A DNA stretch of 64,000 bases from Marsupella aquatica (lineage: Eukaryota; Plantae; Marchantiophyta), in NCBI GenBank assembly GCA_973895155.1, contig OZ316891.1:17730095-17794094 (forward strand), in the 5' to 3' direction. Numbering within the stretch: position 1 is the first letter of the stretch; each line of letters starts with the position of its first letter. The position numbers and the translations under genes were made by a program. Under the pieces are notes generated by a model, which worked only from the letters and a program-made list of their open reading frames with translations, did no database searches and was not told the DNA's origin. Shown piece after piece: positions 5,475-57,801 of the stretch.

Positions 5475-5777
5475 TGTTGACACTCGGGGGGTTGACTATC
5501 AAAAATCTTAGGAACCACGTGCGATCCAAAATAAGTATTTTTGATAGAAATTAACTAAATTTTTAAAAAACGTAGGAGGCAAAAGAAGGTATTATAAACT
5601 CATGTTTAGAGAATATTCTCTAATATATAATTTTTATAAAATAAAATAGGTTATTAATATTGAAAATGGAAAATATTCTTGGAATATTTTCTTTATAAAA
5701 TAGGTCTATTTATATTAGACTAGGATCGCACGTGGTACCCCAAAATATACACTTAGTTAACCCCCCGAGTGTTGACA
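5475..5777. mobile_element. MITE with nested inverted repeats
   Basis: TIR CTCGGGGGGTT(G/A)ACTA at 5483 and 5769, flanked by the direct repeat TGTTGACA (5475-5482, 5770-5777); inner IR ACCACGTGCGATCC / GGATCGCACGTGGT; very AT-rich core. Confidence 0.65.
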
Positions 5778-7749
5778 TTGGAAGATTGGTTAATTATGAG
5801 ATAGCTTTCATCGTTTCAATTCCAACGGTGTAAAGTGGAGATCAAACCGAGCTCCGGTTATGGAGTTATGTTTCATCAAAGTTCCTTCCGTTTGTGATAC
5901 AAAAGCCGGGTACAAAAGAAGTGGCGCACATTGTGAAGGACGCTTTTCTACACTTGGATTGTGAAAGCTTGTGTAGAACCTTGACTTGTTGGGGCCACAA
6001 AGGCCTAGACAAACAGGTTTTCATGCATTTTATCTTGAGGTGGCAAAGTCTTTCTATGCAAGACTCGCATATAAGTTTTGGTTTGTTTGACCAAATAGGG
6101 CTTGGACAAATGGTTTGAATAATCTTTCTTGAGGTGGCGGAGACCTGTTTCTACACAAGGGTCATGTAGAGCTCACCCCCTACACGAGAGTTGTGTAGAA
6201 ATGTGACCAGTTTCATGTTTTGGTACTATTCCTGTAATTCAACGGGGCAAACAAGTTTTGTTTTTTGAGATTTTTTGCACAAGTGTTCCTAGGGGAGTAG
6301 GGAAGGGGCCTGAAAAACTGGTTAAGAAAACATATGTGTGGAAGTTTTTCTTAAAACCGTTTCTCTCAAGGGGCCCAAAATGATGTTTTAACCCCTTGCA
6401 TTGAACATTTAATAACTCCCTGCTCAAGTGTCCATTTGAAGAGCCGCTTGGTGTTTTGAAAATCTGACATGTCATGAACTCCAACTTGCACTAAAAGCCA
6501 TCATGTACATGTCATTTTTTGAGTAAATAGACAGAAAAATGATGTAAAATGCTAGCCCTCAATTGAGTACAAATCATGATCTTCTCTTCTTCTTGTGACA
6601 TTCCATCACCTTTATATCTATTTCTTTGCAGACTTTTGAGTGGCAATTGCCACTAATATAGGCTTTTTTTTGTTCCACTTGACATAGTTTGGATCATCCA
6701 CTTTTGGGCACTTATAATCTGAACATTAGGGTTTTTAATATCAAAATTTGGAAGGCAAAGCCTAGAACTGTTGTACATGCTCAACCCATTGATAGACAAT
6801 AGTGGTGATCCTGCTCCAAGGTTGTCTGACAAGCCTTGCCTTCCAATCTCTCAATTCATATTTTGTCAAGCCAACACGCCTTCCCCGCAATGTCCATTCT
6901 TGCTCAATCTTGCTTGCACAAATTGCTCAATCTCACCTCCGTAAAGCCTGACTTCTTGTAAAATTTCACTTTCTCTAGAGGCTGTCGGACAGCCCTCGAG
7001 TGGTGGACCTTGCCACCCAACGCCCTCACCAATCCCAACACCCTCTCCTAAATGCCCTTGGTGCCCAAACGCCTACACCAAACTTCTTGAGCAAGCAACT
7101 TGGTTCCTCTTGCACCTCCAGCGGCAACTCCCATACACAGCCGCACTTGCTCCCTAACACGACCGCCGTTCAATGGTCCTCATTGTTTGCACAAGCAACA
7201 AACACCTCGATAAGTAACCCGTAGGATCTAGGAACTCCAAGTCTAGTATTCTAACTCAAGCTCACTAGACATTGGTAAGTAGGTCAGTGAATAGAACTTG
7301 TCCGGCCCGCATGGGCTTCCCATAAGCGGGAGCCATAACCGACACCCATTGTTCATCCAAAATAGCTCCTCTTTGGGTGCCGCCCATGCTTCCCCACTTT
7401 CTATCCATCATTGGCTGACTGACATATCCCTAGTACATGTTTATGGCCCAAATAACGTAGCTTGTTCCAGAGTTTTTCTTAAAATACCAAGACCAGATTG
7501 GCCCCAACTCTAGCAACCAACTCCAATGTTCCCACCCAACTGATAGTCTAGGGGTCAAGTGCATTTGGAACTCAACCTCCATACCTACTCTACTTTTTTT
7601 CCCCAAAACCCCAATTTAAGGAATACTGAAGTATTAGATTAATTCCAGTTTTATCTAAATATTATTAGTTAATGAATGATCAACCTCTTTAACATTTGTT
7701 GGGATACTCAAAAACACGACTTGGTTGTTGTTTTGTCGGGATTTGGCAA

Positions 7750-21920: not shown

Positions 21921-22027
21921 GGAACACATTTCCCCAAGATAACCTGCCGGAGGTTTATGAGGATGATGTCGGTGATACTGCCCATGGAGTTAAGCTGGTA
22001 GCGTCACTTTGTTGCCAGTCTAGGGGC
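21921..22027. repeat. 107-bp inverted copy of PTP1 intron-1 sequence (19490-19596)
   Basis: GGAACACATTTCCCCAAGATAACCTGCCGG...GTCTAGGGGC is the reverse complement of 19490-19596, with about 3 mismatches. Confidence 0.9.
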
Positions 22028-22867
22028 GTGGAGTGGCTTGTTAAAATTATGACTTCCCCCTCCATATTCTCCCCTCCCCTCCACTCCCTCTCCTGCCTCC
22101 ATAGCCACTACATTCAAATCTAGTTTTCCCCAAAGAAAATGCAACTTTTCTATAACAAATCAAATGTTTTTGCAGCACAATCCACCTGAACTTCAATTAC
22201 CATATCTTTGGACTGGATAGACAAAAATGAGCGTAGAGTAGCTTGTTGGAACCACAATTCTCCCCTCCATCGTCTTCCCTCCCCACTCTCCTCCTTCTCC
22301 TGCCTCCATAGCCACTACATTCAGATAGGAACTGCCCCTGCAAAAATTAGTTTTTTCAGTAGCATAGTTTTTTCAGCTTTGATTGACATATCTCTGGGTT
22401 GGACAGGCAAAAATGAGGGAGTAGCTTGTTGGAATTCTGGTTTATCCCTCCATAACTTCCTCTCCTCTACCATCCCTTTACTACCTCCTTACTAGACCGT
22501 TTTATTAGACCAGTTTACCCCTAGATTGCTGCCCAAATTGAGCTGCAATTTCTATCAATTTTTACCAGAACTGCAGAGGTTGTTGACTTTGCATTTTTTA
22601 TTAGTATTGGAGATCTTGTGAGTGGCCAACATTGCAAGAGAGGGCAAGCTTGGGGAAGATGGATTCATTTGTCTGCAATCAACTTCTTGAAGGAGTTTTG
22701 TGGCCTGGTCTTGGCTTGAGATTGGACATAAATTTCAAGCTTTCAGCTGGACTTATGAGCAATTGTTTCTAGTTTTGAAATGAATTACTATAATGCATCA
22801 TTGCTCTAGGCTGTGCTCAGTCTGCTTCAATTCACTTTGCACAATGAAAATTTGAGATTTCACTGGT

Positions 22868-28943: not shown

Positions 28944-31900
28944 CTATTGCAAATCATCAACCTCATCATATTCCATTTGCCCAGGTTCATCATATGTCTC
29001 TCTCAATATTAAGGGGATGTAGTCAGTCCCTACCCGAGTTGGAAGTACAGTCTCATGACTAGGATGCTCGAATGCAGCATGGTCATCCAAACTGAACTCT
29101 ACTTTACTTCCATCCATCCGCCTGTTCCGTGCTTGGCTATGGCATACCACCCTCCAGCCATGTGACTCCTCCACATCTGCAAAGAAACCCTGTTCAACTT
29201 GGCTAGGGAAAACAAAAGGCTCAGACCATTCTGGTACTCTGGACCTAAAATTGGCCAACAAGAACCCATCATGATCACGCTTCATGGTGGCCCTTGGTCT
29301 CTGCCACTCTGATTTCACCCATGATCCCTTCATCAATATCACTGGGACACTTGTGTTACCATAATTCAACACCCAAATGTCGGTCAACTCCCCCACGTAA
29401 CCCATCTTCATCCACCCCCTCTGTTCTTCAGAGGTTCTCTGCTCAAACACAGAAATCAAACCACAATCATATGATACACAATGGTCACCCTGCTCATCCC
29501 TCACTCGATAATGATTTCCATAAGCTCTCATCCGTTTGTAGGTCAGAATAGACAATCGTGGTGGCACAGATAGAAGATACAAATCTTTCTCCATATCTGG
29601 ATGATGTCTACTATGCTCTCAAATTGTCACCCGAATCCACTGCTCGAACTATGGGAAGGGATCCTGCTGCCTAGAGTGTGCAGCTTTTTGCATATCATAT
29701 TCCCTGCAATATGAGGTACAGGCATAGTTAGGTCTAAACAACACATGACAACCTAAGATCACCCTTGGAACAGACAAGAAGCATCACAACAAAGGCAAGT
29801 CAATTCAATCACTCACCTCCACCATGGTTGCATAGGCTCTGTGTTTGCCAGCACATATGAATGAGCCTTGTCTCGAATCGCAACAAGCAGCTGAATAGCA
29901 CATCCCACACCTTCAACAACCTCGCCACTCACTCCATCATCTTCACCAGATTTCCAAACTCTTGTCATAGCTTCACCAGACCCAGCCATGTACTCTGTTA
30001 GGAATCCCAACGTCTCATCCTTAATGTACCCCAATGCCATGGAAGCCTCTGGCCTGTAGTATGTTCTCACATGACCTTTCAACAACTTCATGTATCGCTC
30101 CATAGGGTACATCCATCTGGTACTGACTGGCCCATACTGCCCTAGCTCTTCTACCACATGGATTAGGAGATGAGTCATAACATCAAAGAAAGCAGGGGGT
30201 AGTATATCTCCAAGTCACAGAGGACATAAGCAGCATCCTGCTTCAACTGCTCCAATCCTTGGGGATCCCACACTTTCACACATATACGGCGAAATACATT
30301 GCATAGTCAAAGAATGACATTACGGACTGGTTTCTGCATGAGACCTCTGAGGCATAGGGGCAGAATGTGCTGCATCAACACATGGTAGTCATGTGTTTTC
30401 ATACTGCCAAGTTTATTCTTTGTAATATGCTTCTTGAAGGCACTTTCAGACAGCTCAATCTATACAAGAATGTCTTCCATTCATCCTGTGTGCACACATA
30501 GGGAGCTTGGAACTTGAGAAGTACATTGGGATTGCTTGCATGGGGCTTCAACCAAAGGTGAGGGCCAATCCCCTTCTGTTGCATATCAGCTCGAACTGCT
30601 CCTGTATCTTTCTCACCCGACAAGAACTTCAGCAAGCTCTCACAAATATTTTTCTCAATGTGCATGACGTCCACATTGTGTTTGCTGGCCTCGAATTCCT
30701 GCACTCCACAAAGCAAAGAATTCAACAACAGAAACACTAATTAACCACATAGGAGGATTGTAACCAACATCAATCCACCATTGCTCGTATCTAAAATTGC
30801 AATCATACAGGGGCTGGAGGCTAAGTACATTACCCTCCAGTACTCCAACTCCAAGTCCATCAAGGTCTGTCTTTTCACACCGTGTTTCACCACTGGATCC
30901 TCGGGTTCTCGATCAGTGGCACTTCTCTTGTCCCAATCAGCCTTCCTGGCTGCCCACCTCAGGACTTGCTCTCTGGTGACCCTCTGTGGTGGGCCACGAA
31001 GCTCTGTTTTGTTGTTGAAGTGTGCAATTTGAGACCGTGTGTGCCTGTAAGGATGATCAACAGGCAGATACCTTCTATGCCCCTGAAATTTCATACTGTG
31101 CAGGGCATGCGACCACTCACTTGTCACATTTTTCCCACATGGTGTGCACCCCACATAGCCCTTTGTCACTCGTCCAGATATGATGCCATGGCCTGGGTAA
31201 TCTGCTATATCCAGCAAACAAATTGCATGCAGTCTAAAGGGGCTGGGTCGAAGAAGCCCCTTCAGAACATCATGGGTTAACACCCCTTCTATCCACAAAG
31301 TCTTCCACTCTTCCACTGCTGGAGCCAACATGATATCTATGAATTGCTCGGTCACAGAAGCTGGTCCAGGGATTAACAACACCATCATGACAAAAAACCT
31401 CTTTGTAGTCATCCATGGGGGAAGGTTGTAATTTAGCAGCGTAACCGGCCAACATGAATAACGGTTGTTTTTGTCTCCAAATGGGTTTACTCCATCCAGT
31501 GATAGACCAAATCGAAAGTTCCGCTTCTCTACAACAAACTGTGGCCACCTCTCATCAACAAATTTCCAATGGTTGGAATCTCCAATGTGACGTTGCAGGC
31601 CATCACTGCTCTTGTTATCAGGAGTCCATGTCATCAGCTTGGAAATGGCAGGGCATCTAAACAGACGTTGTAGTCTAGGAATGAGAGGAAAATGACGAAG
31701 AACCTTGGCAGGATGTGTACATTTCCCTACATTCTTGTACCTGTGCTTACCACAATGAGGGCATGTCAATTTATCTGCATGCTCTTTGCGAAAGAGAACA
31801 CACCCATCAGGGCATGCGTCAATAGACACATAGTTCAGCCCAAGGTTAGACATCAATTTCCTAGCCTCGTACATATTTTTTGGAATTGAATTACCATCTG

Positions 31901-32929
31901 GTAACACATTTCGGCGCAGGAAGGTCAACAACTCTGTCACAAATATATTGGGAACATTGTGATTGCCACAGATGTTCAACAACAACACGACAAAACCCAG
32001 CTTGGAGCAGTTCGACCCCTCGTAGATAGGAATGCAAGCTTCTTTGATGTGTTTTGGGCCCCCAAACACCCACTCCCTCTCTGCTGCACCTTCCCCAATG
32101 TCAAAGTCAGGTTCAGCTTGGCCATCGCCAATGTGTGGCTGCGGTTCATTGTCCTCTTCTGATTCCACTGTGTCGTAAAAAGCATCAAGGTCTTCAAAAA
32201 TCTCTTGAACCATTCTTGGGACATCCATCCCACCGTCCTCAGTGACTGCCTTTGCCTCTCCATCTTGGTCATCCACGTTCTCATGTTGGACCCCAGGACC
32301 ATCCTCTGCACAGTCTATGTCCTGCTCTCTCGGGGGTTTCACTTCCACAAAAATGGCACATCACGTGCGACGAAGTATAGGGTTGATTTATTGGTTTGAA
32401 GGGAAGACTTAAGAATTTTTGTAGAAGAACAATAGGGTCCTTTAAATTCAATTTTGAGACTTATAAGAACATTAGGGTCTTTTTAACCAAAATTTTGGAA
32501 TATTCCAAGAATATTCCAACTTTATAGGGGTTGAAAAATTAAAAAAAATTCTTATATTTTAGGGGGTCTGAGGCCTAAAAACGTCGCAGGGGATGGGGAG
32601 ACATCCATATAGTGAGACCCCTGAGCCTGCTCTACGTAGTCTCTACGCCTAGCTGTATTAGAATCCACAAAGTCAGCTCTCCACTCTTCATCAGAGGAGT
32701 CTTCTTCTGCTGGTACATTCCAAACCCTCCACCGAGGGTGTCTTTCATGCCGCAGCAGGTGAAGGTGCACAGTGTTCAAACTCAACGACTTGAATCCTTG
32801 GCACTGTGTGCATGGGCATCTCATCCTCCTACTCCTACCTTGGGCGGCCCGGGCTTGTTCACGCATCCACAATTTAGAATCATGATGCCTAATCCTAAAT
32901 GGGTTGTGAAGAGGCAACCTTGGAGCCAT
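28944..32929 (-). pseudogene. CACTA TnpD transposase (Transposase_21/DUF4218/DUF4216 type), disrupted
   Basis: RCPCTQC..VHLHL; IDACPDGCVLF; LRHFPLIPRLQRLF; LSLDGVNPF..YSCWPV..NYNLPPW; DYPG; DVMHIEKN; KTHDYHV; MTHLLIH..GPV..RWMYPMERYMK; EPFVFPSQVEQ. Broken by a MITE (32362-32592), a frameshifting deletion near 30435, a TGA near 30307 and a frameshift near 30200. Confidence 0.92.
32362..32592. mobile_element. 231-bp MITE inserted in the TnpD coding sequence, AT target duplication
   Basis: at|CACGTGCGACG ... CGTCGCAGGGG|at. Removing the element plus one AT restores the TnpD frame (..MDVSPCAIFVEVKPP..). Confidence 0.85.
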
Positions 32930-33965: not shown

Positions 33966-34814
33966 TCACTCTCTCCCACCTTTGCTAAGCATACATCTCC
34001 GCTGAATCTTGGAGGGCCAGGCCTCAAAAATATCAAAGTCCCAAGCATGCTGTCGCTTCCCTCTAACTGCTGATTCCAGAAGCCAATCAGGGGAAAGCAC
34101 CCAAAGATTGTTGTTCATGACAAAATCACGCACTATTGTCTTAAAGAATTTTCTGCATATTTTCATGTATGACAGACCTACAACATGAGTGGAGGTTTCT
34201 GTTAGACTCTCCTCCACTGTCCCACCTAGCTCAACAACTATGGACTTGTATAGTCTGCACTTAGTCTCCCCAATTCCTTCTTCTGCAAATACCACACTGA
34301 ACCCCTTCATAATGGTATTTCTCTCCTTGCCATGCTCATTCAATATAGCATCTGCACGCATAGGATGGTGTCCTATGTTGACAACAGGTCCATATTGGAC
34401 AGAAGCAAAGTTGGGTTTCTCTGCCGCTGCTTCATAGGCTTCCTTTTCAGCCAAAGCCTCTGCAGTGGCCTCCTCACTCTCCCACAACTCATATTGCTCA
34501 GTACTCTGTACACACCTATGTTTAACAGAATCGGTCAGCCAAGAGACTTCAACTACTTTTAGACCTTGGTTGGTAATGGCAGAATCAATGAAGGACCATG
34601 ACCACTTGTTCATCACATCCAGCCATGTCCCCGCAACAACATGTGTAGTCTGTGGAGTGATGTCCTTGACTTCAGTCCCATGGAACTCTGAGAATCGTTT
34701 TTGTACGATTGGCCAACTCACTTGGGTGAACCCATAGTGGCCAGGAATCAAAATGGCTTTGATTCCAGCCAACAGAGGCGGGTGGTCAACCTTTGTACGT
34801 TTCCTAGAGGCCAT
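33966..34814 (-). CDS. Tandem BRCT-domain protein (DNA polymerase lambda-type BRCT), intact 282-aa ORF in the CACTA
   Basis: Two repeats: LLAGIKAIL..HGT..TTHVV..VVEVSWLTDSV and MKGFSVVF..GIG..ELGG..STHVV..VLSPDWLLESA..FDIF, with the BRCT GG, THVV and W..(D/E)S hallmarks; basic NLS-like N-terminus (RKRTK). Confidence 0.85.
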   Translation of the reverse strand: MASRKRTKVDHPPLLAGIKAILIPGHYGFTQVSWPIVQKRFSEFHGTEVKDITPQTTHVVAGTWLDVMNKWSWSFIDSAITNQGLKVVEVSWLTDSVKHRCVQSTEQYELWESEEATAEALAEKEAYEAAAEKPNFASVQYGPVVNIGHHPMRADAILNEHGKERNTIMKGFSVVFAEEGIGETKCRLYKSIVVELGGTVEESLTETSTHVVGLSYMKICRKFFKTIVRDFVMNNNLWVLSPDWLLESAVRGKRQHAWDFDIFEAWPSKIQRRCMLSKGGRE

Positions 34815-35412
34815 GTACACACGGGCCACCTAATCACTACAGACCAGAAGATAATGCGTTCACCTGATAATCGGAGGGCCCTTAAAATGCTGCGTTTATA
34901 ACTTGGTCCAGTCCAGTCGTCTGGTGAGTCTCTGCTCCGATTCCAAACGGGAGAAATATTGGGACAAACATACTAGACACCTGCAAGCATGCACCTCATA
35001 GTTTGAATATGTGCCTTCACAATATTGAAGGTGACAAGTGCAATTGTTTTGTGATGCCACATACAGATGTTGTAAATGGGCAGACATTCAATGAGAATAC
35101 AAAATGTTGGTACACTTTAAGGGAATTCTCACAAATTAAATAGCCTTGTAACTTATATGCTCATAATGAGAAGTCCTGATTTAATTTAAGCAGTGTCATG
35201 TAAGTCGTGATCAAAATGATTGCAGAGTTAAAAAAGTTCCTAGAAGGCTTAAGGGGAGTTTTTGAAGGCATGTACCCAGGAACAAGTAATGAACTTAGGG
35301 TACTTGTTGCCTAAGCATCCTCTCCTACAGAGGTCCTTCTTCTCAAAATTGGAATGTCTGCAATCTCCAAGGTATCCACATCAGGTGCACTATGCATGTA
35401 CATTATTCAGGT

Positions 35413-41510: not shown

Positions 41511-44437
41511 CCCTACAAAGAGAAAGCAACATCAAATTCAGCATCTGGAATTAAAGCTCACCTGAAAGTGCACATGGTCATAGAGTTAAGCAACGATAGC
41601 AAACTAAGGGCAACTATTCAATACGAATGCATAGACGTAACACACAGAAAAGACAATCTTTGAATCACAATCACACAAACAAATGAGAGATAATGCAACA
41701 ATTCAATCACAATCCCACAGAGAAAGAGCAGAGTTTATCAAGCTCACATAGTTGAAGAAATTGATCAAATTCCTACCAGATCATAGACATTTGAATAGTT
41801 GCAATTTGATTGTTGTCTTCAGTTGTGCTTGAACACTTGTCTATGGAGATAGGAGCCAGCTGCTTATGGAGCCATGTTGTCCAATCACAAAATCTCCAAG
41901 ACAAATAAGAAACACACAGTCAACAACCTCTGAAATTTTGGTAAAAACCGACAGAAATTGCAGCTCAAATTGGGTAGCAATCTAGGGGTAAAATGGTCTA
42001 ATGTGGAGGTAGTAAAGGAATGGGAGAGGAGAGGAGGTTATGGAGGGGGAACCCACATCCCAACAAGCTACCCCATGCTCATTTTTGCCTGCCCAAACCA
42101 AAGATTGATATCTCAAATCAACGTTGAACAAACCGTGCCGCTGGAAAACTAATTTTTGCAAGGGAAGTTCCAATCTGAATGTAGTGGCTATGGAGGCAGG
42201 AGAGGAGGGGAGACTATGGACAGGAGAATTGTGGTTCCAACTAGCTACTCCACTCTTGCTTTTGTCTATCCAATCCAAAGACATGCTAATCAAAGTTCAG
42301 GTGAATTGTGCTGCAAAATTGATTGTTTAACAGAAAAGTTGCATTTTCTTTGGGGAAAATCCAATTTGAATGTAGTGGCCATGGAGGCATGAGAGGGAGG
42401 GGAAGGGAGGGAAGAATATGGAGGGGGAAGTCACAATTATAACAAGCTACTCCACGCTCATTTTCACCTACCCAATGGAAAGATACATGACATATATCAA
42501 AGTGGAAGGTCTGCTGTCACTATCAACTCCTATTTCCTTAGGCAAAACTGTAAGTCCTTTATTCACTTTGCATTTTCTTTGGGAAAAACGTGAATGCAAT
42601 GTTTGTGTTTCTCTCCTATGCTACAAGCATTGATTAGGAGCCGACGGGATTGAGAGGAACCAACAAAAAACATCAGGGAGAGGTTTTTGACAGCGGGAGA
42701 GGGCTGGCAGGGGGGAGCTCACACTAGGCGACCAACCCCTTCAGTTGGGGCAGAACAAGTTGGGCAGAGATTTTTTGAGGGAAAATTCCCACCATTGGAT
42801 GCATACATGTGGCATGATTTCAGCCGTTGGATGAGTATGAGTTAAACATAGGTGGTTAACTTAACCCCTGCTGCAAAAAGGTGGCATTCTAGTAAATAAG
42901 CATGACAAGGTAATAATTTTGCAATAAAAAGGTGGCAAAGCAGTAAGTCTCAATTTTCAAGTGGCCACTCTCTAGCATTTGGGGAAAGGGAAGCAACCGG
43001 CTGCCCAGCCTAGTAATGACCCAAAGGCTTTGATTTTGGACACCTCCTGACTGGGAGAATTAACTTACTTTGTTCTTCCCAAAAATTTCCTAGCGTGTGA
43101 AGACAAAAGACAATGCACTGCCCATGACATAGTGCATGCCCTATACTTTAAAAAATGCCCTCCTAGGGATTCCATCAAGGCACTTTGATTTTTGTCCATA
43201 ATTTCTTAACTTAGTGTCATCAAGAGAATGCATGGCAATGACACAATGCTCAATATTGTGACAAAATGCTCCTGGCTTGCTACACTAGGGAGGGAAAGTA
43301 CTCTCAGGCCATGGGTTGCTGGTGCTATTTGTTTAGACGTTTACAAGGGGAGGTTTTGGGCTCTGGTGGGGACTTGCTTGCTTTGATTGCCTTCTTTGTC
43401 GGGAGGATTCTACTGACTTGGTTTGTTTTATACGTCGCAAGATGCTATGGGTATTGTGGAATGGTAGGAATAAGAGGGTATTTACTCAAGCGGCTGCCAT
43501 TCGCCCATTCATTTATTTTTGCCTAGTGCTCTTAAATGACTGATCCTTTGCAAGTGGTTAGCTTAATTGCATACCCCTAAGCAGGAAACTTATGTGTCCA
43601 CTAAGTGCAAAAGAAGTGCTTATTAGGGAAAGAAAACTATTATGGGCGCACAGTGGCACTCATTTTCTTTAGGAGGAAATTTTCATTGGTTTGTGAGTGT
43701 TAGAACCAGTTTTATTGTTGGCTAATTGGCATTCAGAAACACTAAAATACTATGAGCTATGGGCCATGTCTTAGGTAGGATGTGGTGTTTGCTGTCTTTT
43801 ATGGCTTACAGCCTGGTTCTGCCCTCCTTCAAGGAATTGTCCTTTTATGTTCCTTGTTCTTTTGGGCTGTATTACTTCCCCTTTCTGTAGGGTTATCACG
43901 GTTTAAATAGGGGGTCTCAAATATTGGGCCAGGCAATTCCTACAGATGACCGTTTTAGGTGGCGGACGCGGCTAAAACTTGTACGACACTCCCTCTGTGT
44001 GGCCTGCACACTCATATTGTGGCAATTTACCATTTCCCGAGAAAAGTTTGGCCCGAACGGTCAGCACAATTTAAATTGGTGGTCTAACACTCTTATCATC
44101 CTGTCATACACAAATTTCCACTCTCACAAGAGGGAAATGCTATCGCAATCAAGTTGGGAGCTTATCGTCGACGATCGCGAATTGATCAGAGGTGCATAAC
44201 GGAGTGTGTGTCAATGGAGAGTGTTTCAATCAGACGTCAAAGTGTTTAGAGTTTAGCATTGACAGCCAACATTGGGAGCTTATCATCAACGGGACGCCAA
44301 TGCCAGCAAGCTTGAATCAACAATCTTGTGTAAGTTCTTTTGACTCTTGACATGCATGCTCTGTTGTCCACTCTTGAAGTACCATGCATGAAAATATTTG
44401 GGGCCTGAGTCTAAATTTTTCTTTGCCATAAAAAGAG

Positions 44438-47841: not shown

Positions 47842-49885
47842 CAGCTCATCTAAATGCGCGACCTGCTCAACGTTCTCCACGTTTTTGCTACACTCTTCCC
47901 GTCTTCCCCCTTTGCGCTGATTTCGAAACTCTTTAAATGTTTCTTCTTTCCTACATAGTGCGATGTATTGAGCATTTCAAAATGAATGTGCGGGGCCTCT
48001 CAAAATTCTGAACACCCTGTCTTGCGGCAAAGACCCCATTCCCGTAGTTGACGTTCCCCGGTATGTAAAAAAACTATTTAAAAAAAAATCTGGACCGCTG
48101 TCAAACTTGTCCGTGGGCTGACTTACAGGCAAAATATTTCGTCCGGGAAAACATAAAGCGACCCTATATTTGAGACCCCCTAATATAACATGTTCCTGGG
48201 AATTATTGTTTGAGGATTTTCCGTGATAGAGATTTTGGCCAGGTTTAACCTGACGGGCAAGTTGTCATGCCGAGGGACAGTGCCGCTTGTGCACATCGGC
48301 ATGTCCCTCGCATGCCCGCTAGGTATGTAGTTAGGGCTAGTGTACTACTTGAGTTAGTGTCATGTTCTTGTAGCAAGTCTGGGCCGTTCTTGAAGCAAAA
48401 CGTGTTTGTTAGTGTGACGCCTTGACTTGATCTACTTAGGGCATGTCTTTCTTTGTCGGTTTTCAGTTCTTCTTGAATCGCTGTGAGACAGAGTTTTTCA
48501 AAGGCTGCTCGTCGGTTCCGTACACGGAATTCACACAGTGATTCGTTAGATGCTCCCGGCCGATCTTGGCATCTCGCCGGTTTTCGATTCAATTTCAGTA
48601 CGTTTGTTTCTATCACGCCTTTTATTCAAGAAGAACTCTGTCGCCGGGTTAGCGGTGAAGGGAAGAAGATCGGAGACGCTGTGCTTCTCAATTGCTCGAG
48701 ACAGTTGACGCTTTTCCGCTGATGCCGGTGCAATTTCTATGGAAAAACGTTGAGCAATGGGGTGGAAGTTATGGCTTTTGTGTATACACTTAAGTATATA
48801 CACTTAAGTCAAACAGGCCCCCCCTCACTCTTTTCCTTCGCGCTTTGCTTTCAGGGTTTTCCATTTCCCGGCCACGGCTGCCATCCTGCATCGGCTGCCG
48901 TGCGACAACCTCCGCATTGCCTCGGCCACCGTGCGACTGCTTCTCGACTACATAGGGCCTCGCGCCCGTTTTCTTTTCGCCCTTTGCTGCCATTTTTTGC
49001 CTTCGTCGGCTTGCCACTCCTTTCGCGTTGGTGTGCAGGCTGTGCATAGGGCATCGTGCCTTTGCCTCGCCCATTTTCCTTCCTTCTTTTCCTTACCGTT
49101 ATCAGCAATTAAAGCACTTAGATGAGGGGGAAGTGAGCGCAAGGAAAGGAGAGGGCACGAGGCCCACCAGGAAGCATTAAAGCAGGAGAGGAGGGGGAGC
49201 GAGTGTGCAAGGAGAGGGCACGAGGCCCTATGCTGCAATTAAAGGAGGGGAGGGGGAGCTCGTAGCTTCCCTTCGGAAGCTCTTAAGGTGGGGCACGAAG
49301 CCCTATGGAGGGCTCATGCCATTAAGAGGGCCCGGTTTCTTTCGCCTCGCCCCCTTTCTGCCTCGTATTCCGCCTCTCTCTTTTCTTTTTGGCAGTCGTC
49401 TTTCCTTCCGCCTCGCAACGACTTGCATAGGGCCTCCGCAGGCTGCCTGTGCATAGGGCGCCGTGCCCAGAGTGTGTTTACACACTCGGCCAATTCCCTT
49501 GTGGCCGATTTTGCTGCCGACGCGCGCCCGGTCTCTTTTCCATCGTGCTTGCTAGTTCCCGGGTCCACATCGGGCCCGATGTATACACTTAACCGGGCCC
49601 CATGTTTATACATTTGAAAGGGCCCATGTATACACTTAAGGGGGCCCCAGGTTTACATTTTTAAGGGCCCATTTTTCCGGGTCAATCTGGCAAGCACAAC
49701 ACCGGCACAATTGGAGTTTTTAAGGGTCTTTTCTTTGCCGACGGTTTTTCTGTGTGTTTACACATTCGACACATTTCTGCCTCACATCGTTTGTTTCCTT
49801 TGTGGGTTTTATTTCCTAGCCTTGGGGCTGCCATTTCTTTTTCTTGTCAGTTTCTTTCCCATTGGCACCCAGGTGAGCATGCAGC

Positions 49886-52800
49886 ATGTCAGCCGACGAG
49901 CCAGGAGGTAGCAGCACATCGCCACCGACACCCAGGTACCACTTATGGAGTGATCCACGACCATTGGTGCCAATTTCATTGGAGTCTCGGCAATTTTGAC
50001 GACGTCCACAAACAGCAGCAGCACCCACACCACGCAATCCTTCTGCTCCATTTGGCGGTCGCTTCACCACTACTCCCAAGCCTGCTATCACTTCATTGCC
50101 ATTTACCCCATCTGCATCCGTGGTTGTTCTTGCTTCACCGACATACAGCATGGACGCCAGCCACTCATCTGGCCGCATTGAACGCTTTAGCGGGCGGCCA
50201 GGCACTGTTTCTTTGCGTGAGTTCAAATCCACTTTCTACACTATCGTTTACAAATTGGAGTTGAAGTATGGCAGCAATTTCACAAATGCTTTTGCATTTA
50301 AGCAGCTAGCCAGGTATGTGCACCACGAGGCTTTGGATGTGTATGAGCAGCACTCTCAACGGCTGCTTGCTCTCACACAATTGCCTAACCCTGCCTATGC
50401 CACTGCAATTGCGGCTGCCTCACAACTGGCATTATAGAATGCCATTGCAGCCCATGCTGCTGCTCCTGCCACTTCCCCTCCTACTCCAGTTCCCACCACT
50501 GCACCAGTTACTCCCACTGTCTTGGCACAGGCTACATCAGGCATTTCTCCCACCATTGATTCTCCTGCCTTTGCTGATCCAGTGGCTGAGTTTTTCCAGG
50601 TTCTTGAATTGGAATTCCCAATCAAGAGTGCTGATAAAATCATGCAGTTGGCCACCTTTGTGAGGCAACGCGATGAAACATTAAAGATGATGTATCGCCG
50701 GCTTCTCAAGATGAAGGAGGACACCCAGAGCATCACTGACCTGGAAGCTGCTCATCGCTATCTTCGCGCATTGGAGGGCACACCAGCTCTCCATTCGCAA
50801 GTGTTGCAGCAAGTATTCTCAGAGTTTGGAGACAACTACACCTTGCTCAATGTCTATGACACTGCTGAGAAACTTGAATTGGCCCATGCACATTATGAGG
50901 CCAGTATTGCGCATCCACCGCGATCCAGGTACCAGGCTGTTGCCCCTACACTGACCACCCCTTCCCGTGTGCCATAGTATGGTTCCAAGACCAAGCCAGC
51001 ACATGCTGCTATCATGCTGCCATCTTGCAACTACTGTGGTAACCCTAATCACAAGGCTAATGAATGTGATATTGTTGTTGAGGACCTGTCTTGTGATTTT
51101 TGCGGGAAAGTGGGCCACTTGGAGGCAGTTTGTTTTGCCAAATTCCCCGAGAGGAAGCAACTACGACAGTAGGCCACTCATCTTGCTCTTGTTTCCACTC
51201 CCCCACCAGCTAGGAGGGCTCCTACTGCATCAACTGATCCTCCTTCCAGTGGCAAAGCATCCAGTGCCAACAAATCGCCCAAGCAGCAACAGAAGCAACC
51301 AGCTCAGAAGGAGGCTCACAACGCACAGGCAACTCAACTCCAGTCTCTGACTCATGAGGTTGAGTCCCTACGTGCCCAACTTGCCAACATCAAAGGCAAG
51401 TCAACTGCCTCTACTGGTCCTTCTCAACCGGCTGGTCACGTGCAACCCATCCCTGGCCCAGGCACCACTGACAGTTCAGCACCTCTACCCTGCTCTTTCT
51501 ATGGCTTGCCATTTGATGCTCATATGGGTGAGTGTGTGCTGTCCTCTGCTCCACAGCCTGGCCTTACAGCAGAATTTTCAGATTCATTCTGCCCTTCTTA
51601 TTTTGCTTACCAGCAGGCCAGTGCTGCCTCCCGTATTGCTCCCACACGCCGCATTGTACAGGCTGATGGTCTTGCTGTCGGTCCTATGACTAGAGCCAGG
51701 GGAGCTTGGGCTATCATGCCCCAATCTTTTCAGCCACTCACACTTGCTGAAGAGCCCACCTTGTTGGCGAGGGGGGAGGGAGCTACAGCTACATCCATTC
51801 CACCACCAGGTGCTGCTGACATTTCACAGGGAGTTGTTTCTCCTGAGCTGCTTGAGCATTTCACCTTCGGTATGGCACAAAGGATTCTTACAACTCCACT
51901 TTTCAGTTGCCATGATTTACAGCTGGATGCTAGAGCTGTCATCAGAGCGCTAGAGGGTTCATTGCATTCTTCATCAGCCCCTGTGACACCGGTTTTGGAG
52001 GTCCAATCTCATGTACATAGTGGACCTTCTTCTTCTCCATTACATGTTTCCACTGGTTTGGCTGCCCCAGTACCGATTGCTGCTGATTGTGTGACCAGAG
52101 CTACACTTGATTCTGGTCATGCTGCTCCATCTTTCCAGGCTATGTTGTTGAGTGGAAAGACCGTGGATACTAACTCCCTTCACAAGGTACCTCATCATTT
52201 GCCGAGAGTGGTGCCTAGTGATAGGACTTCAGTTTCCACCACCATTGCCATTGTTGACAACAAGAATTCAGTGGTCAAGTTGGAGGGTCACACTCCTCAG
52301 GTGGTCATGCTAGACACAGGTGCTCAACCAGTGATATTGGGCATTCAGTTTGCCAAGAAGATGGGACTGTTGACTGATCATTTACAGCAATCCAGGTGGC
52401 ACATTCGGACTACTAGTGGCACTGTGGAGGATGTGCTGGGTGAGAGTTCTACTTTACTCACTCTCACTTTTAATGGAGGTACAGATCAGGAATTGCATTT
52501 CCCAGTCAGATGTTTGGTTACCAATGCCACTACGTATGATGTGCTCATTGGCCAGGAGGCTTTGTTCCCACCAGGTTTTACCATTGACAATTGGCATGAG
52601 CATGCATACTACAGAGTTGATTGGCATACGGATGGCTCACACTTGGGCTACATTGCACTTGATTTGCATGGTGCCCATACACCTATGGCTCACCACTATG
52701 TGTTGAAAGCAGTGCACACAGCTACCTATGTCAACCACCCATTGCAGGATTGGATTGAGGAGGATGATGATGAGGTGGCTACTACACATGCTGCTGCACG

Positions 52801-55800
52801 TATAGCAGCACTTTCCAGCAACGTGGATCATCAACCAGAGGTGGTACAACGGCTCCAAGCAGCCCATGGACCTTTGGTGGCTGCATTGCGCAAATTTGAG
52901 GATCTAGGGCAGCACAATGGCCAACCAATAGCCCCAATCTTGAGCGCACCAGTTACATGGACTCCTCCTTCAGATGGCCTTACATTGCTTGAGTTTTTTG
53001 GTGGCATTTCTACAGGCCTGGAAGCTCTCCTACAGTCTGGCATGGTGGTGAAGCAGTACATCTATGTGGATATTGATCCAGGTGCAAGGCAAGTGTCTGA
53101 ATCCCGTCTGCTGGAATTTTCAGAGCGATTTCCCCAGCAGTTTCCACATAGTGCATGGAAGTTTGCATTCTTTCTTTCCTCCAGATATCCAGCTTGTCCA
53201 GCACCGACATTTAACCCTTCTTGGCTCCCTTGATTTGATCATAGCTGGTTGGGAATGCCAAGGGTTTTCAGCTGTTGGTCACGGTGCTGGACTGCATGAT
53301 TCTCGTTCTGGCCTTTTCACAGCATTGGTTCAGATTCTCACCTGGGCTCAATCCCTTCATCCTGCTGTTGGTTATATCATTGAGAATACTCCATCTCAGT
53401 TTGACCAGCGTCCACAGGTCAAAGAGGATTTCAGTGTGGTCCAGCACTACTTGGGACCACCCCTTCTCATTGATGCAGTGCACTGTGGTTCTTATGCACA
53501 TTGTCTTCGTAACTTTTGGACTAACCTTGCACCACCTTCCTTGTTGGAGTTAGCTCTTCACCACACATCCAGGGACACTAACCTCACAGTGGACCAGATT
53601 TTGGATCCTGACAGCTCTTGCCAACCAGTTACACGGCAAGAGCCAGCACCTTGGTATCCAGCCAATACCATTGGACAGCCCCGTGCTTCTTGGCCTACAT
53701 TTGTATCCTTTCCAGGTGCACATGCCTTTCAGGGTGATGGTCCTGGCCTGGTTTATCGACATTCTACCGGTACTTGGGATGAACCTAGTCCCGAGGAGAG
53801 AGAACGGGCTATGGGCTTCCAATCCGGTACTACAGGCCACACCCACATCACCAGGCTGGTCAGGAATGCTTTACTTGGCAGGGTAATGGATCTTAATGCT
53901 CTCACTTGGCTTCTGGTCACTTGCATCCTTTTTTAGATGTACATTCATCCAGCATCTGGAGTTCCCGCTCTACCACTCCATGGTGCTGCTACATGGCATC
54001 CAGACCAGGTGCACTTACCTCTATTCAACACTCACCACTTCAGTCCAAGTGTTGGGGGGGAGGAGGTCCCTTGTAATGTGGCTGACATTATTTCTGAGTT
54101 TCATGGTGTGGATCAGACTAGAGCAACAAGTACAACAGGCCTTGGAGAGGCCTCATCACCTTATCAGCAGCATGCTAGCAGCGTGGACAGTGGAGAGGCT
54201 GGCACTTCTGGCTCTTCAAGCACGAGTACATCAGGTCCTATTCATAGTGTTGCCAACTACACATTCATCATGGGCAACCACCTGAGTAAAAGATAGAAGG
54301 ACCAGCTGCTGAATTTGCTCCTCAAGCATGAGAACGTGTTTGCTTTCTCTATGAAGGACTTGGGTAAGTGCAAGACTATGCAGTTCTCCATTGAGTTGGC
54401 TGACGAAACACCTATCTTCAGGCGGAGACACCGTTTGAGTAAGCATGAGTGGCAGCTGGTGGATGAGAGGTGCCAAGAGCTCTATGAAGCTGGTCTTATT
54501 CAGCCATCTACATCAGATTTTGCGGCAGCTACAGTGATGCCAGCAAAGAAGGATTCCAGTGGATTGTGGACAGAGAAGCGCATGTGTGGGGACTACAGGC
54601 CATTGAACCTGATCACACCCCAGGACAGGTTCCCCATGCCACGGCCAGAGGAGCTATTTGACAACATTGGAGACTCAGACATCTTCACTCTTGTGGATCT
54701 AAGGCAAGGCTTTAACCAGATTTTGCTGCTTGCAAAGGACCGCAAGAAAACAGCTTTCCATGGCAGTAACCAACTATGGGAGTGGTTGGTGATGCCATTT
54801 GGCTTGAAGAATGCGCCCATATTCTTTCAAAGAGTCATGGACCAGGTTCTTCAAGGTGCTGAGTTTTTGAAATGCTACATTGATGATGTGTTGGTCCATA
54901 GCAAAGGATTTGACCAGCATCTACTTGACCTTGAGGAGCTATTCATGAGGCTTAAGAAGGTGAACCTAAAGATACACCCCAAGAAGTGTGAATTTGCTGT
55001 CAGATCAGTAGTATACCTTGGGCACCGCATTCTTCCAAATGGAACCATGGCTCACTGGGCCAAGGTGGTATCCATCTTGGAAATGCCCACTCCTACCGAT
55101 GTTCACACTTTGAGGAGTTTTATTGGGTTGTGCAATTACTACCGGATCTACATCAAAGATTTCAGCACCATTGCACACCCATTGTATGCTTTGTTGAAAA
55201 AGAATGTGACTTGGACATGGAGTACAGATGCTGAGGCAGCATTTGCCACTTTGAAGGAGAAGTTCTCAGAATACCCGGTGCTGAGAAGACCTGATTTCAA
55301 CAAGGTCTTTGTGCTACACACAGATTGGAGTGCCCTTGGGATTGGTGCCATTCTGGGCCAGCATGATGAGGAAGGTAAAGAGTACGTCATTGCCTATGCA
55401 TCCAGGAGCAACAATCAGGCAGAGAGTCATTATTCTTTGTATGAGGGTGAATGCCTTGCTGTTGTGTGGGTTGTCATACATTACATGCCCTACCTCTATG
55501 GGACCAGGTTTGTCCTCTACACCGACCACCAGCCCTTGAAGTGGTTGATGACCAATGACAAGCTTACTGGCAAGCTTGCTCGTTGGGCGCTCATACTCCA
55601 GGAGTATGACTTTGAGGTAATTCATAGGCCTGGTGTGACACATCAGAATGCTGACACTATGTCCCGTAGCCCTTTGATTACCTCTGATGATTCCTCAGAT
55701 GCACGGCAGGATTTTGACCAGGTTTCCATCCTGCCTACATTTCATGCATCTACCTATCTTGCTTTGCTGCCATGCTATATTGTTGACCAACCTGTGGTGG

Positions 55801-57169
55801 ACATATGGGAGGACAGCGACACTCTGAGATTTCTGCAGCATGGGGAGTACCCCACCCATGTTACTACTGCCCAGAGAGACCGAATTCAGCAAAGGTCCAA
55901 GCGCTACTTGTGGAAGGGAGATCATCTTGTGCGCTGCCTGCCAGACAGGGAAGTGGTGGTTCCACCCATTCATGAGAGGGTTGGCCTTATCCGTAAGGTA
56001 CATTCTGAGCTTGGTCATTTTGGTGTTAAGAGGACTTATAGCCTCTTGGTCCCCCATTATCATTGGAGAGGCATGCATGGCCAGGTTCGAGATGTTATTG
56101 CCCGGTGTGAGCAGTGTGATAGGGTAAGGACTTCTTTCACATCTCGGCAACCCACACTTCATCCACTCCCTATTCAGGGCATGTTTTATCGTTGGTCATG
56201 TGATTTGGCTGGAGAATTACCCCTCACATCTCGGGGTAATCTCTACATCATGATCATGATAGAGCATTTCTCCAAGTGGATAGAACTTGTGGCATTGCCG
56301 GATAAGACCTCTCGTAGCACCAGCCAGACATTCCTGCAACAAGTTCTCAGCCGCTTTGGAGCTTGTGCAGAATGTCTCACTGACCAAGGATCAGAGTTCA
56401 GAGGAGAGTTCCAGGAGCTGCTTGATCAGGCCCTCATTGATCATCGCCGAACGTCACGAGATCACCCACAAGCAGATGGCTTGGCAGAGCGCATGGTTCA
56501 GACATGCAAGAAGGGTCTCCGGAAGATTTGCCTCACCAAAAACAAGGAGAATTGGGACCTGGCCTTACCCTACATTGCCATGGGGTATAGGATGTCCAGA
56601 CATGCATCACTGTCTAACTTTTCTCCCTACTTCTTGTTGTTTGGTCGTCACCCAGTTCCACCTTCTGCTATTGCTGCTCACATGCTTCAGGTGGTGGACT
56701 TGGATTCAGCTGTGACTTGGTCTGATGTGATCTCTGAGAGGGCTGCCCTATTCAGGAGAGTTATGCCCATGGCCATGGAGAATTTGGCCATTGCACAGCA
56801 CAGGGACACATTGCGTTATGCCCACACACGAGGGGGCACTTTTCAGCCCAAGGTCAGGAAGTTTGATGTGGGAGATTTTGTGTACTTGCAGCGGCAAGCT
56901 AACGACACCCTGGACACCTCTACCAGTCGTACAATTCTCAGGGTTAAAGCTATTCGACCGTCTGGAGTGCTAGAGTTACAAGGGGCAGATGGGCGCACAA
57001 TTGCTGACAATGCCAAAATTGCGCCCCTTGTCATCTGCCTAACCTAGATCCCACCATTGTGACTTCTACTTGGATTCCACCTGTGGACTACCCTTGCAAG
57101 GCGTGTTTGCGAATTGATGATGCTGACCAGATGCTGTTGTGTGACAATTGCAATGGAGGGTACCATCTC
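49886..57169 (+). pseudogene. Gag-PR-DNMT-RT-RNaseH-INT-PHD polyprotein (about 2430 codons) with about 6 in-frame stops and 2 frameshifts
   Basis: Zn knuckles CNYCGNPNHKANEC and CDFCGKVGHLEAVC; protease LDTGA; RT MCGDYRPLN, DLRQGF, MPFGLKNAP, YIDDV; RH TDWS..IAYASR..TDHQPL; INT HHCC, DLAG, TDQGSEF, GLAER; PHD CKAC..LLCDNCNGGYHL cut at 57169. Frameshifts near 53175 and 57018. Confidence 0.93.
52979..53915 (+). other. DNA (cytosine-5)-methyltransferase domain (DNMT3-like) between protease and RT
   Basis: Motif I LEFFGGI, II YVDID, IV IAGWECQGFS (catalytic Cys), GLHDSRSGLF, VI IIENT, VIII AHCLRNFWTN (first Arg appears mutated), IX ERERAMGF, X LLGRVM, in canonical order. Confidence 0.9.
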
Positions 57170-57377
57170 CACTACGTACATACCACTTCATTTGTTTTTT
57201 CTTGGCACTTGGGAATGTGATTGGACTTTTTCTATGCATGTTGGTTGCTAGCAGCTTGCACATATGCATTGCCGGTGACTTGTATGTTTTCGATACACTA
57301 TGGCTACGATACTATATGTCACGACAAAGTTGACGGCTTGTCGGGCACATAAAACCGTCAAATGACGGCCCCAAAAC

Positions 57378-57801
57378 GGCCAGTTTGACGTATATTCGTT
57401 GATATTCCCCTGGACTCCCGACCCGGCCAGACTCCCAGCCCGACCCGGCTCCCGACCCAGCTCCTGACCCGCCTGGACCCCGGCCTGGACCCCACCCAAA
57501 CCCGGCCCTGACCCGGCATCCTGAACCCCTCCCGAACTCCTCCTGAATTCCTCCCCGGCCTCCCAAACCCCTCCCAAACTCCTTTCCGGCCTCCCAAACT
57601 CCTCCCAAACTCGGCCAGACCGGGCTCCCCAAATCCCTCCCAGGCCTTTTGAACCCATCCCAAACCTCTCCCAAACCCCTTAAACACCCGGCCCGGGCCA
57701 GCCCGGGTCGACCTCACACCCGGGCCGACCCCAACTCCGGAAGACTGGGCGACCGGGTTGACAGGTTTATGTGTTTACTGGGAAAATTGGCCAGTTTGAC
57801 G
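57378..57801. repeat. C-rich degenerate repeat array (CCCGACCCGG / CCTCCCAAAC units)
   Basis: Strongly strand-biased short repeats bracketed by the direct repeat GGCCAGTTTGACG (57378, 57789); the overlapping ORFs are low-complexity artefacts. Confidence 0.6.

Follow-up and report, generated by a model that had tools for sequence, protein, structure and literature searches.

The 64,000-nucleotide stretch of Marsupella aquatica contig OZ316891.1 analysed here (hereafter the window; all positions are window coordinates) contains at 48263-57326 what is very probably a dead member, with an internal deletion, of a high-copy family of Ty3/gypsy retrotransposons. This family shows homology and collinearity with KnitGypsy-Dnmt3 of Klebsormidium, encodes a single polyprotein of the order gag, protease, DNMT3-type cytosine methyltransferase (DNMT), reverse transcriptase (RT), RNase H, integrase and PHD finger, and has split direct repeats. 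Stop-to-stop open reading frames (ORFs) of the plus strand between 50000 and 57047 were scanned with Pfam, and the matches lie on this one strand in the order aspartic protease, DNA_methylase, RVT_1, RT_RNaseH, Integrase_H2C2 and rve. Upstream of them, a gag-like region read from the ORF (49886-51172, plus strand, frame 2) has two CCHC zinc knuckles (51026-51067 and 51092-51133), and the gag regions of the related proteins P0007 and P0153 align to 50576-50770 (tblastn). The protease (52274-52564, plus strand; PF13975, E 2.5e-6, 28.4 bits against a cut-off of 28.2) bears the motif LDTGAQ at 52310-52327. It is followed, always on the plus strand, by a DNMT3-type C5 cytosine methyltransferase with motifs I-X in order (52994-53891; PF00145, 26.3 bits against a cut-off of 22), the RT with YIDD at 54876-54887 (54570-55031; PF00078, E 2.2e-28), the RNase H (55218-55607; PF17917, E 1.2e-36, and PF17919, E 1.8e-30) and an integrase with an H2C2 zinc-binding region and a DDE core (55965-56468; PF17921, E 9.5e-14, and PF00665, E 3.2e-13). 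The Ty3/gypsy Pol order of protease, RT, RNase H and integrase is thereby present, and 2685 homologues are found at E<=1e-20. An earlier note made from the sequence alone had placed a C5 methyltransferase with motifs I-X between protease and RT, which the Pfam order and the motif coordinates bear out; the limits it gave, 49886-57169, enclose the coding part only, the true ends being 48263 and 57326.

In the DNMT domain, motifs I (52994-53017), IV (GWECQGFS, 53247-53270), VI (IIENTPS, 53376-53396), VIII (AHCLRNFW, 53496-53519), IX (53793-53819) and X (53871-53891) follow one another on the plus strand in the canonical, unrearranged order. Comparisons with relatives draw on related loci, 80 of which were kept from at least 621 stretches found by scanning metagenome contigs with protein P0209. 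One of them, L031, has an intact domain that aligns to the DNMT3A catalytic domain with the same six motifs collinear. Matched to solved structures, this domain scores best with DNMT3A (E 5.6e-9), followed by DNMT3C (E 2.2e-7), DNMT3B (E 7e-7), plant DRM (E 4e-4) and M.HhaI (E 7e-3), and no DNMT2 chain is found at E 0.01. These structure-match scores assign the predicted enzyme to the DNMT3 type, unrearranged unlike DRM. Across 125 aligned domains, the motif I glycine, GW.C, EN and AHR.R..W.N are each at least 90% conserved.

The catalytic motif had also been read as ECQ rather than PCQ, which is correct. Across 70 aligned segments from the related loci, the catalytic cysteine is preceded by Glu 63 times, by Lys 4 times, by Gly twice, by a stop once and by Pro never. 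A broader alignment of 86 rows has Glu 56 times, Pro 19, Ser 5, Asp 4 and Cys once at this position, with the catalytic cysteine itself present in all 85 non-gap rows, and at least nine switches between Glu and Pro are required on the DNMT tree. The model of the liverwort Calypogeia fissa (P0407) reads ECQ and that of Klebsormidium nitens (P0207) PCQ. ECQ is the ancestral motif IV state of the family and no lesion. Between the window copy and L031, nonsynonymous (pN) and synonymous (pS) divergence amount to 0.178 and 0.753 (saturated) in the DNMT, 0.085 and 0.780 in RT-RNase H, and 0.307 and 0.637 in the linker, which indicates that the DNMT was under purifying selection while the families diverged.

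Behind the integrase, the frame from 57047 encodes C-x2-C-x12-C-x2-C-x4-H at 57095-57169 (plus strand), where the sequence breaks. By comparison with the related protein P0168, this is the N-terminal half of a PHD finger with five of the eight zinc ligands, and the window copy does not contain the complete Cys4-His-Cys3 pattern (PF00628). The finger is complete in P0168, which is 82% identical to the window across 853 columns from RT to integrase (tblastn); most of the nearest relatives in Pol also have a listed PF00628 match, and contig loose ends show that other host copies keep an intact finger where the window copy is broken. The PHD finger reported earlier after the integrase is therefore rightly placed and whole in relatives, but only half of it stands in the window. 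Its closest solved matches, taken from P0168, are CHD4, WSTF, KDM5A/B/D, KMT2C/D, ATXR5, BAZ2A/B, PHF21A, UHRF1 and AIRE, fingers that we take to be readers of the unmodified histone H3 tail and not of trimethylated lysine 4 (H3K4me3). Pfam finds no PF00385 chromodomain in the window; the PHD finger takes the chromodomain's place, and the element is not a chromovirus. The two have in common a chromatin-reader domain fused to the integrase C-terminus, a presumed guide of integration, but chromoviruses carry a chromodomain there, and the nearest chromodomain-bearing matches are only ∼35% identical in Pol. Among Chlamydomonas transposons, the PHD finger is reported to be a frequent accessory domain (PMC8557442, citing Perez-Alegre 2005 and Craig 2021); the PHD-bearing elements share the finger with the present family but, as presented there, are without a DNMT.

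The ends of the element were read from contig junctions of public sequencing runs and from related loci; runs (X1, X2, X4, X6) and organisms (A, B, C) of this contig comparison are given as codes. The element has TG..CA termini (TGTCATG...CACGACA), starting with TGTCATGCC and ending with GTCACGACA, and AAGT is duplicated on both flanks (48259-48262 and 57327-57330) as a 4-bp target-site duplication, read directly and seen on the left in empty-site contigs and on the right in contigs and loose ends. The empty-site joint from 48258 to 57327 occurs in 4, 2 and 1 contigs of runs X1, X2 and X6, with 5-6 letters shared, and the left flank stands directly before 57327 in 21, 22 and 7 contigs of X1, X4 and X6. 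Contig loose ends past 57326 are mutually discordant (agreement 0.41-0.6), as expected if other insertions have different flanks and the dispersed repeat ends there. Contig depth is high from 48263 onward, and joints from 57326 to 48263/48265 are found in contigs with 1-4 letters between. Loci L031, L071 and L021 have the same end motifs, including the start motif of the first repeat, with 4-bp duplications of their own (GGTC, ATAA and TCTA, respectively). TG..CA termini and a short target duplication, the marks of integrase-type insertion, are thus both found. The target (48001-48258 plus 57327-57397) is itself a repeat, represented without the insertion by more than 20 contigs per run. Right after this target repeat lies a C-rich low-complexity array (57380-57740, variations on CCCGACCCGGC), and contigs part from the window sequence at 57397, within the region of this array.

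Three repeat searches found no flanking direct repeat or long terminal repeat (LTR) pair in the window, a result explained by the split-repeat layout of the family together with a 3' deletion. The window retains a terminal repeat A1 of 363 bp (48263-48625, plus strand), which begins with TGTCATGCC and is delimited by the start motif in related loci, by depth and by loose ends in which B begins right behind the last letters of A. It also retains a remnant of terminal repeat B (57169-57326, plus strand), which has lost its first 16 nt and ends with GTCACGACA, an end motif common to related loci. Of twelve related loci examined, six show the full layout A1-internal-B1-A2-B2 (L031, L062, L045, L071, L021 and L053), one the A pair only and two the B pair only. 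In L031 (5558-5849 and 14229-14882), A measures 292 bp and is 92% identical between copies, while B measures 185 bp and is 94% identical. Both B|A and A|B junctions are present in host contigs. Neither the window nor its split-repeat relatives have the two identical long terminal repeats of an LTR retrotransposon, and the 'two-LTR copies' named in the earlier note are the wrong form to expect of this family. PAT, Ngaro and DIRS elements combine split direct repeats with a tyrosine recombinase; the repeat layout here is like theirs, whereas the integrase is of the DDE type and the ends are TG..CA with target duplications.

The deletion is delimited by the relatives. Homology to all eight loci compared ends at 57168/57169, other copies continue past 57168 with the rest of the PHD reading frame (contig loose ends), and loose ends before 57167 consist of the end of A and 16 nt of B, from which it follows that other copies carry A2-B2. 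No listed contig spans the window junction 57168/57169, a hole in the contigs that proves nothing by itself. Missing from the window copy are thus the 3' end of the ORF, B1, A2 and the 16 nt with which B begins, unless its ancestral form had a single B, in which case the deletion was shorter. The GT after the break in the PHD finger was considered as the start of an intron and rejected: homology to the eight related loci ends there, other copies keep the reading frame, and the next 158 nt are the terminal B repeat. Between A1 and the coding region, the leader (48638-49885, plus strand) differs from that of most other host copies, which have loose ends at 49882, and the summed depth over 48701-49750 is 20-60 times lower than over the remaining element. 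The family thus seems to comprise sub-families with different leaders. Short internal repeats lie within the leader at 49108-49259.

The window copy itself cannot act. With frames counted from 49886, it has six premature stops, TGA at 49997, TAG at 50435, 50975 and 51170 (frame 2), and TAG at 53934 and 54294 (frame 0); the stop at 53934 lies just 3' of the DNMT domain and that at 54294 upstream of the RT. A frameshift near 53168 falls inside the DNMT domain, and a second one, of 1 base, lies near 57016, past which alone the PHD finger is readable. At 53502, an Arg-to-Cys change has turned motif VIII, AHR.R in at least 90% of the 125 aligned domains, into AHCLRNFW. At 53502 and 53934, where the window copy has T, every covering contig has C; at 51170 the same difference separates it from all or nearly all of the other copies, many of which also have one extra G behind 57016. 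Since other copies are intact at the lesion sites checked, the damage is private to the window copy. With its stops, its frameshifts and its deleted PHD finger, the copy does not stand as a functional element, and statements about function concern its intact relatives.

Directly 3' of A1 lies a putative self-priming primer-binding site of 12 nt (48626-48637, plus strand), the exact reverse complement of 48465-48476 within A1. The complementarity is maintained in the moss-like loci, in which two letters of the 12-nt stretch differ and changes in the partner compensate; the complement is 11-14 nt long in L031 (located at 5720-5864), L006, L045, L053 and L062, and 8-9 nt long in L071 and L021. 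In RNA folding, the two stretches come out base-paired, at z -2.4 for the window and z -4.7 for L031. Pairing of a presumed RNA 5' region with a site behind the repeat resembles the self-primed reverse transcription of Tf1-type elements, and, as in gypsy elements of the Tf1/sushi type, a stretch that may lie near the RNA 5' end is complementary to the post-repeat site. From this complementarity, the element likely primes its own reverse transcription, the stretch inside A pairing with the 12 nt that follow the repeat. A poly-G run stands just before B1 in related loci, and in the integrated form A starts and B finishes with ends of the integrase type. This arrangement is reminiscent of a two-repeat circle cut open at the B|A junction, itself an imperfect inverted repeat.

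The family extends well beyond the window. Searched against 1.84 billion cluster representatives, the DNMT ORF yields 1153 matches with E<=1e-3, and 174 with E<=1e-30; polyproteins of 1000-3400 residues are frequent among them. Pfam analysis of 13 matches distinguishes two architectures, CCHC-DNMT-RT-RNase H-integrase (P0007, like the window) and RT-RNase H-DNMT-integrase-PHD (8 proteins). A tally of domain order by regular expressions and phmmer over 291 stored proteins with a DNMT match places RT before DNMT in 66 and DNMT before RT in 23, with DNMT and PHD only in 17 and DNMT only in 185. By tblastn, the K. nitens protein P0207 aligns to the window in the same order from DNMT through integrase (41.5% across 1295 columns), P0209 matches it over DNMT and RT (73% across 805 columns), and P0185, P0199, P0007 and P0153 also align, all with the DNMT upstream of the RT. 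The window copy thus shares with the K. nitens element a collinear DNMT3-type domain in the Pol ORF and, complete in related loci, a DIRS-like split repeat structure, and its proposed membership in the charophyte DNMT-gypsy lineage is confirmed by the collinear P0207 alignment. The DNMT is likewise no peculiarity of one copy: it is present in all 77 related loci covering the region, and in the host runs its read depth is as high as that of the RT.

Carriers of the window architecture or of its DNMT include K. nitens, several Closterium strains, C. fissa (P0407, protease plus DNMT, 64% identity), Sphagnum compactum, S. balticum and S. magellanicum; with Calypogeia and Sphagnum, named land plants are among the carriers. 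Compared with named Sphagnum proteins, identity is 78-86% for the related loci and only 50-60% for the window. A DNMT tree (86 rows, each required to have motifs I-X plus RT or PHD; quick IQ-TREE search, from which the K. nitens row dropped out) divides the two architectures by one branch, 13 against 73 rows, with a Shimodaira-Hasegawa-like approximate likelihood ratio test (SH-aLRT) value of 92. The window pairs with L031 (SH-aLRT 100) inside the 13-row group with DNMT before RT, which includes two Closterium rows, and the DNMT of the RT-RNase H-DNMT-integrase-PHD type forms the sister group of the window's type. Polyproteins of that second type are numerous (P0012, P0013, P0036, P0053 and others), and a Chromochloris zofingiensis model (P0440) has DNMT motifs with only RNase H listed besides.

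The family is very abundant in organisms A and B, and sequence related to it also occurs in organism C. In run X1, the summed depth, which is not a copy number, is ∼5e4-1.7e5 across 49751-57450 and repeat A, ∼2e3-4e3 in the leader and ∼1e2 in the flank beyond 57800. Of 10482 aligned contig pieces, 3296 are at least 99% alike.

DNMT-bearing retrotransposons in print come from dinoflagellates and from one charophyte alga with few copies (PMC5890265). The concept, as the earlier note conceded, is not new, the Gypsy-DNMT3 of Klebsormidium having been published in 2018 (PMC5890265). A 2025 article repeats this account and, in its treatment of these elements, adds no taxa (PMC12344493), and a 2026 preprint refers to Gypsy-DNMT3 as a streptophyte element (10.64898/2026.05.21.726589). 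Our literature search returned no report of DNMT-bearing retrotransposons from bryophytes or other land plants. KnitGypsy-Dnmt3 is the closest known system: both combine a gypsy Pol with an unrearranged DNMT3-type domain, located upstream of the RT in P0207, and purifying selection on the DNMT is common to both. In the 2018 paper, the legend of Fig. 4c assigns KnitGypsy-Dnmt3 a DIRS-type repeat structure with gypsy domains, which fits the A...B-A-B arrangement here (PMC5890265). The two differ in abundance, very high here against few copies in K. nitens (PMC5890265), in motif IV, and in host, which here is plant-type with bryophytes as nearest named relatives. The main text on KnitGypsy-Dnmt3 mentions no PHD finger, 4-bp duplications, TG..CA ends or self-complementary primer site (PMC5890265).

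SymbioDIRS-Dnmt3 and SymbioLINE-Dnmt of Symbiodinium are also retrotransposon-borne C5 methyltransferases (PMC5890265), but they are built on a tyrosine-recombinase DIRS element or a long interspersed element (LINE) in another host lineage, with no integrase and no PHD finger. According to the authors' account, the Symbiodinium captures were independent, and SymbioDIRS-Dnmt3, a DNMT3-type enzyme within Pol, is the only one with demonstrated CG methylation (PMC5890265). Chlorophyte elements (the 'pol' protein KAF8056149.1 of Scenedesmus sp. PABB004 and many metagenome proteins) have a DNMT with GW[EP]CQ..S, EN and AHR.R and the same RT, integrase and PHD families, but the DNMT follows the RNase H instead of preceding the RT; our literature search found no paper describing this RT-RNase H-DNMT-integrase-PHD form. 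The features for which no report was found, best seen in relatives of the window copy, are the Glu-Cys norm, the integrase-fused PHD finger, the 4-bp duplications, the TG..CA ends, the likely self-priming site and the chlorophyte sister architecture.

Elsewhere in the window, a CACTA-type DNA transposon of ∼20 kb occupies 22026-42457, bounded by inverted repeats at 22026-22635 and 41871-42457 that are 83-86% complementary. On the minus strand it encodes a Transposase_21 ORF (30744-32360, E 4.9e-59), a weak DUF4216 match (28947-29618, 24.2 bits against a Pfam cut-off of 30.6) and a BRCT-domain ORF (33969-34829), which may be a piece of host sequence picked up by the transposon. The combination of a CACTA transposase and DUF4216 is consistent with a land-plant genome. 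A 504-residue open frame without a Pfam match lies at 2-1513 on the minus strand, 1 base from the window's left end.

As part of Pol in intact relatives, the DNMT would methylate newly reverse-transcribed complementary DNA (cDNA) or the insertion site, a tentative proposal with odds somewhat against it. The PHD finger, by analogy with the chromodomain of chromoviruses, would likely tether the integrase to silent chromatin unmethylated at H3K4. Several observations weigh against this picture of the family. The Pro-Cys dipeptide of motif IV is replaced by Glu-Cys in the window and in most clade members, and in the one published assay of the lineage the Klebsormidium domain is reported to have produced no methylation in yeast, a result its authors call inconclusive (PMC5890265). 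Most copies seen are dead: of 77 DNMT-matching related loci, 46 match the first 300 residues end to end, and 1 of these 46 (L031) is stop-free, the median being 4 stops. Calypogeia proteins are 64-82% identical to the window and about as similar to the moss-like loci, and the sequence-based case for a land-plant host draws on the relatives and on the CACTA transposon. As for replication, a primer site after A combined with a poly-G run ahead of B1 leads one to expect linear cDNA arranged B-A-internal-B-A, but the integrated form is A-internal-B-A-B.

The substitution in motif IV and the yeast result (PMC5890265) would both suit a pseudo-enzyme, with the DNMT kept as a structural module of Pol or as one that binds nucleic acid or S-adenosylmethionine. 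This is nonetheless unlikely, given that the catalytic cysteine is invariant and that EN of motif VI, AHR.R of motif VIII and the motif I glycines hold at 90% or more across 125 domains that are only 35-45% identical, while the repeated interchange of Pro and Glu suggests that both are tolerated in a working site. An active enzyme could also, in place of marking cDNA within the particle, be aimed at the host chromosome at or around the insertion or at resident copies, damping the element's own expression and limiting harm to the host, an idea raised in the discussion by de Mendoza et al. (PMC5890265). The decay of the window copy fits cytosine methylation, five of its six stops being TAG and other copies having C where it has T at 51170, 53502 and 53934, and its insertion sits within another repeat. 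We consider such a target improbable: nothing here separates it from cDNA methylation, and copies that are methylated and decaying would be accounted for by the host's CMT, DRM and MET1 pathways without it.

Methylation of RNA, either the genomic RNA or the primer, in the manner of DNMT2 and with effects on packaging, stability or priming, would account for the absent DNA methylation in yeast, and the 2018 discussion raises the idea for LINE-borne DNMTs (PMC5890265); but the best solved relatives, DNMT3A, DNMT3B and DNMT3C, are DNA enzymes, no DNMT2 chain appears among the matches at the threshold given above, and the explanation is very unlikely. The frameshift inside the domain and the stops on both sides of it might have pointed to a DNMT foreign to the element, either a piece of a host gene or a nested insertion confined to the window copy, but this is refuted by the family-wide presence of the DNMT, found at the same place in every covering locus, at full depth in the host runs, and in the intact ORFs P0209, P0007 and P0185 and the Klebsormidium, Closterium and Calypogeia models.

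The widest form of the methylation proposal would hold that a gypsy lineage with a DNMT and an H3-reading PHD finger is among the most abundant and recently amplified bryophyte repeats, that its Glu-Cys enzyme is active and methylates its own cDNA or insertion sites, and that it replicates by an undescribed route combining self-priming, split repeats and a DDE integrase; taken as a whole, this is a rather doubtful proposition. The window copy is a fossil only, yet its lineage is not confined to algae and occurs, at very high depth, both in a genome of plant type and in assemblies of named liverworts and mosses, so that tractable bryophyte relatives offer abundant material for testing cDNA methylation and PHD-steered integration. 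Plants fight transposons chiefly by methylating cytosines, and a transposon with a de novo methyltransferase of its own inverts that picture. If the proposal is true, de novo methylation by transposon-encoded enzymes would count among the working components of epigenomes in land plants.

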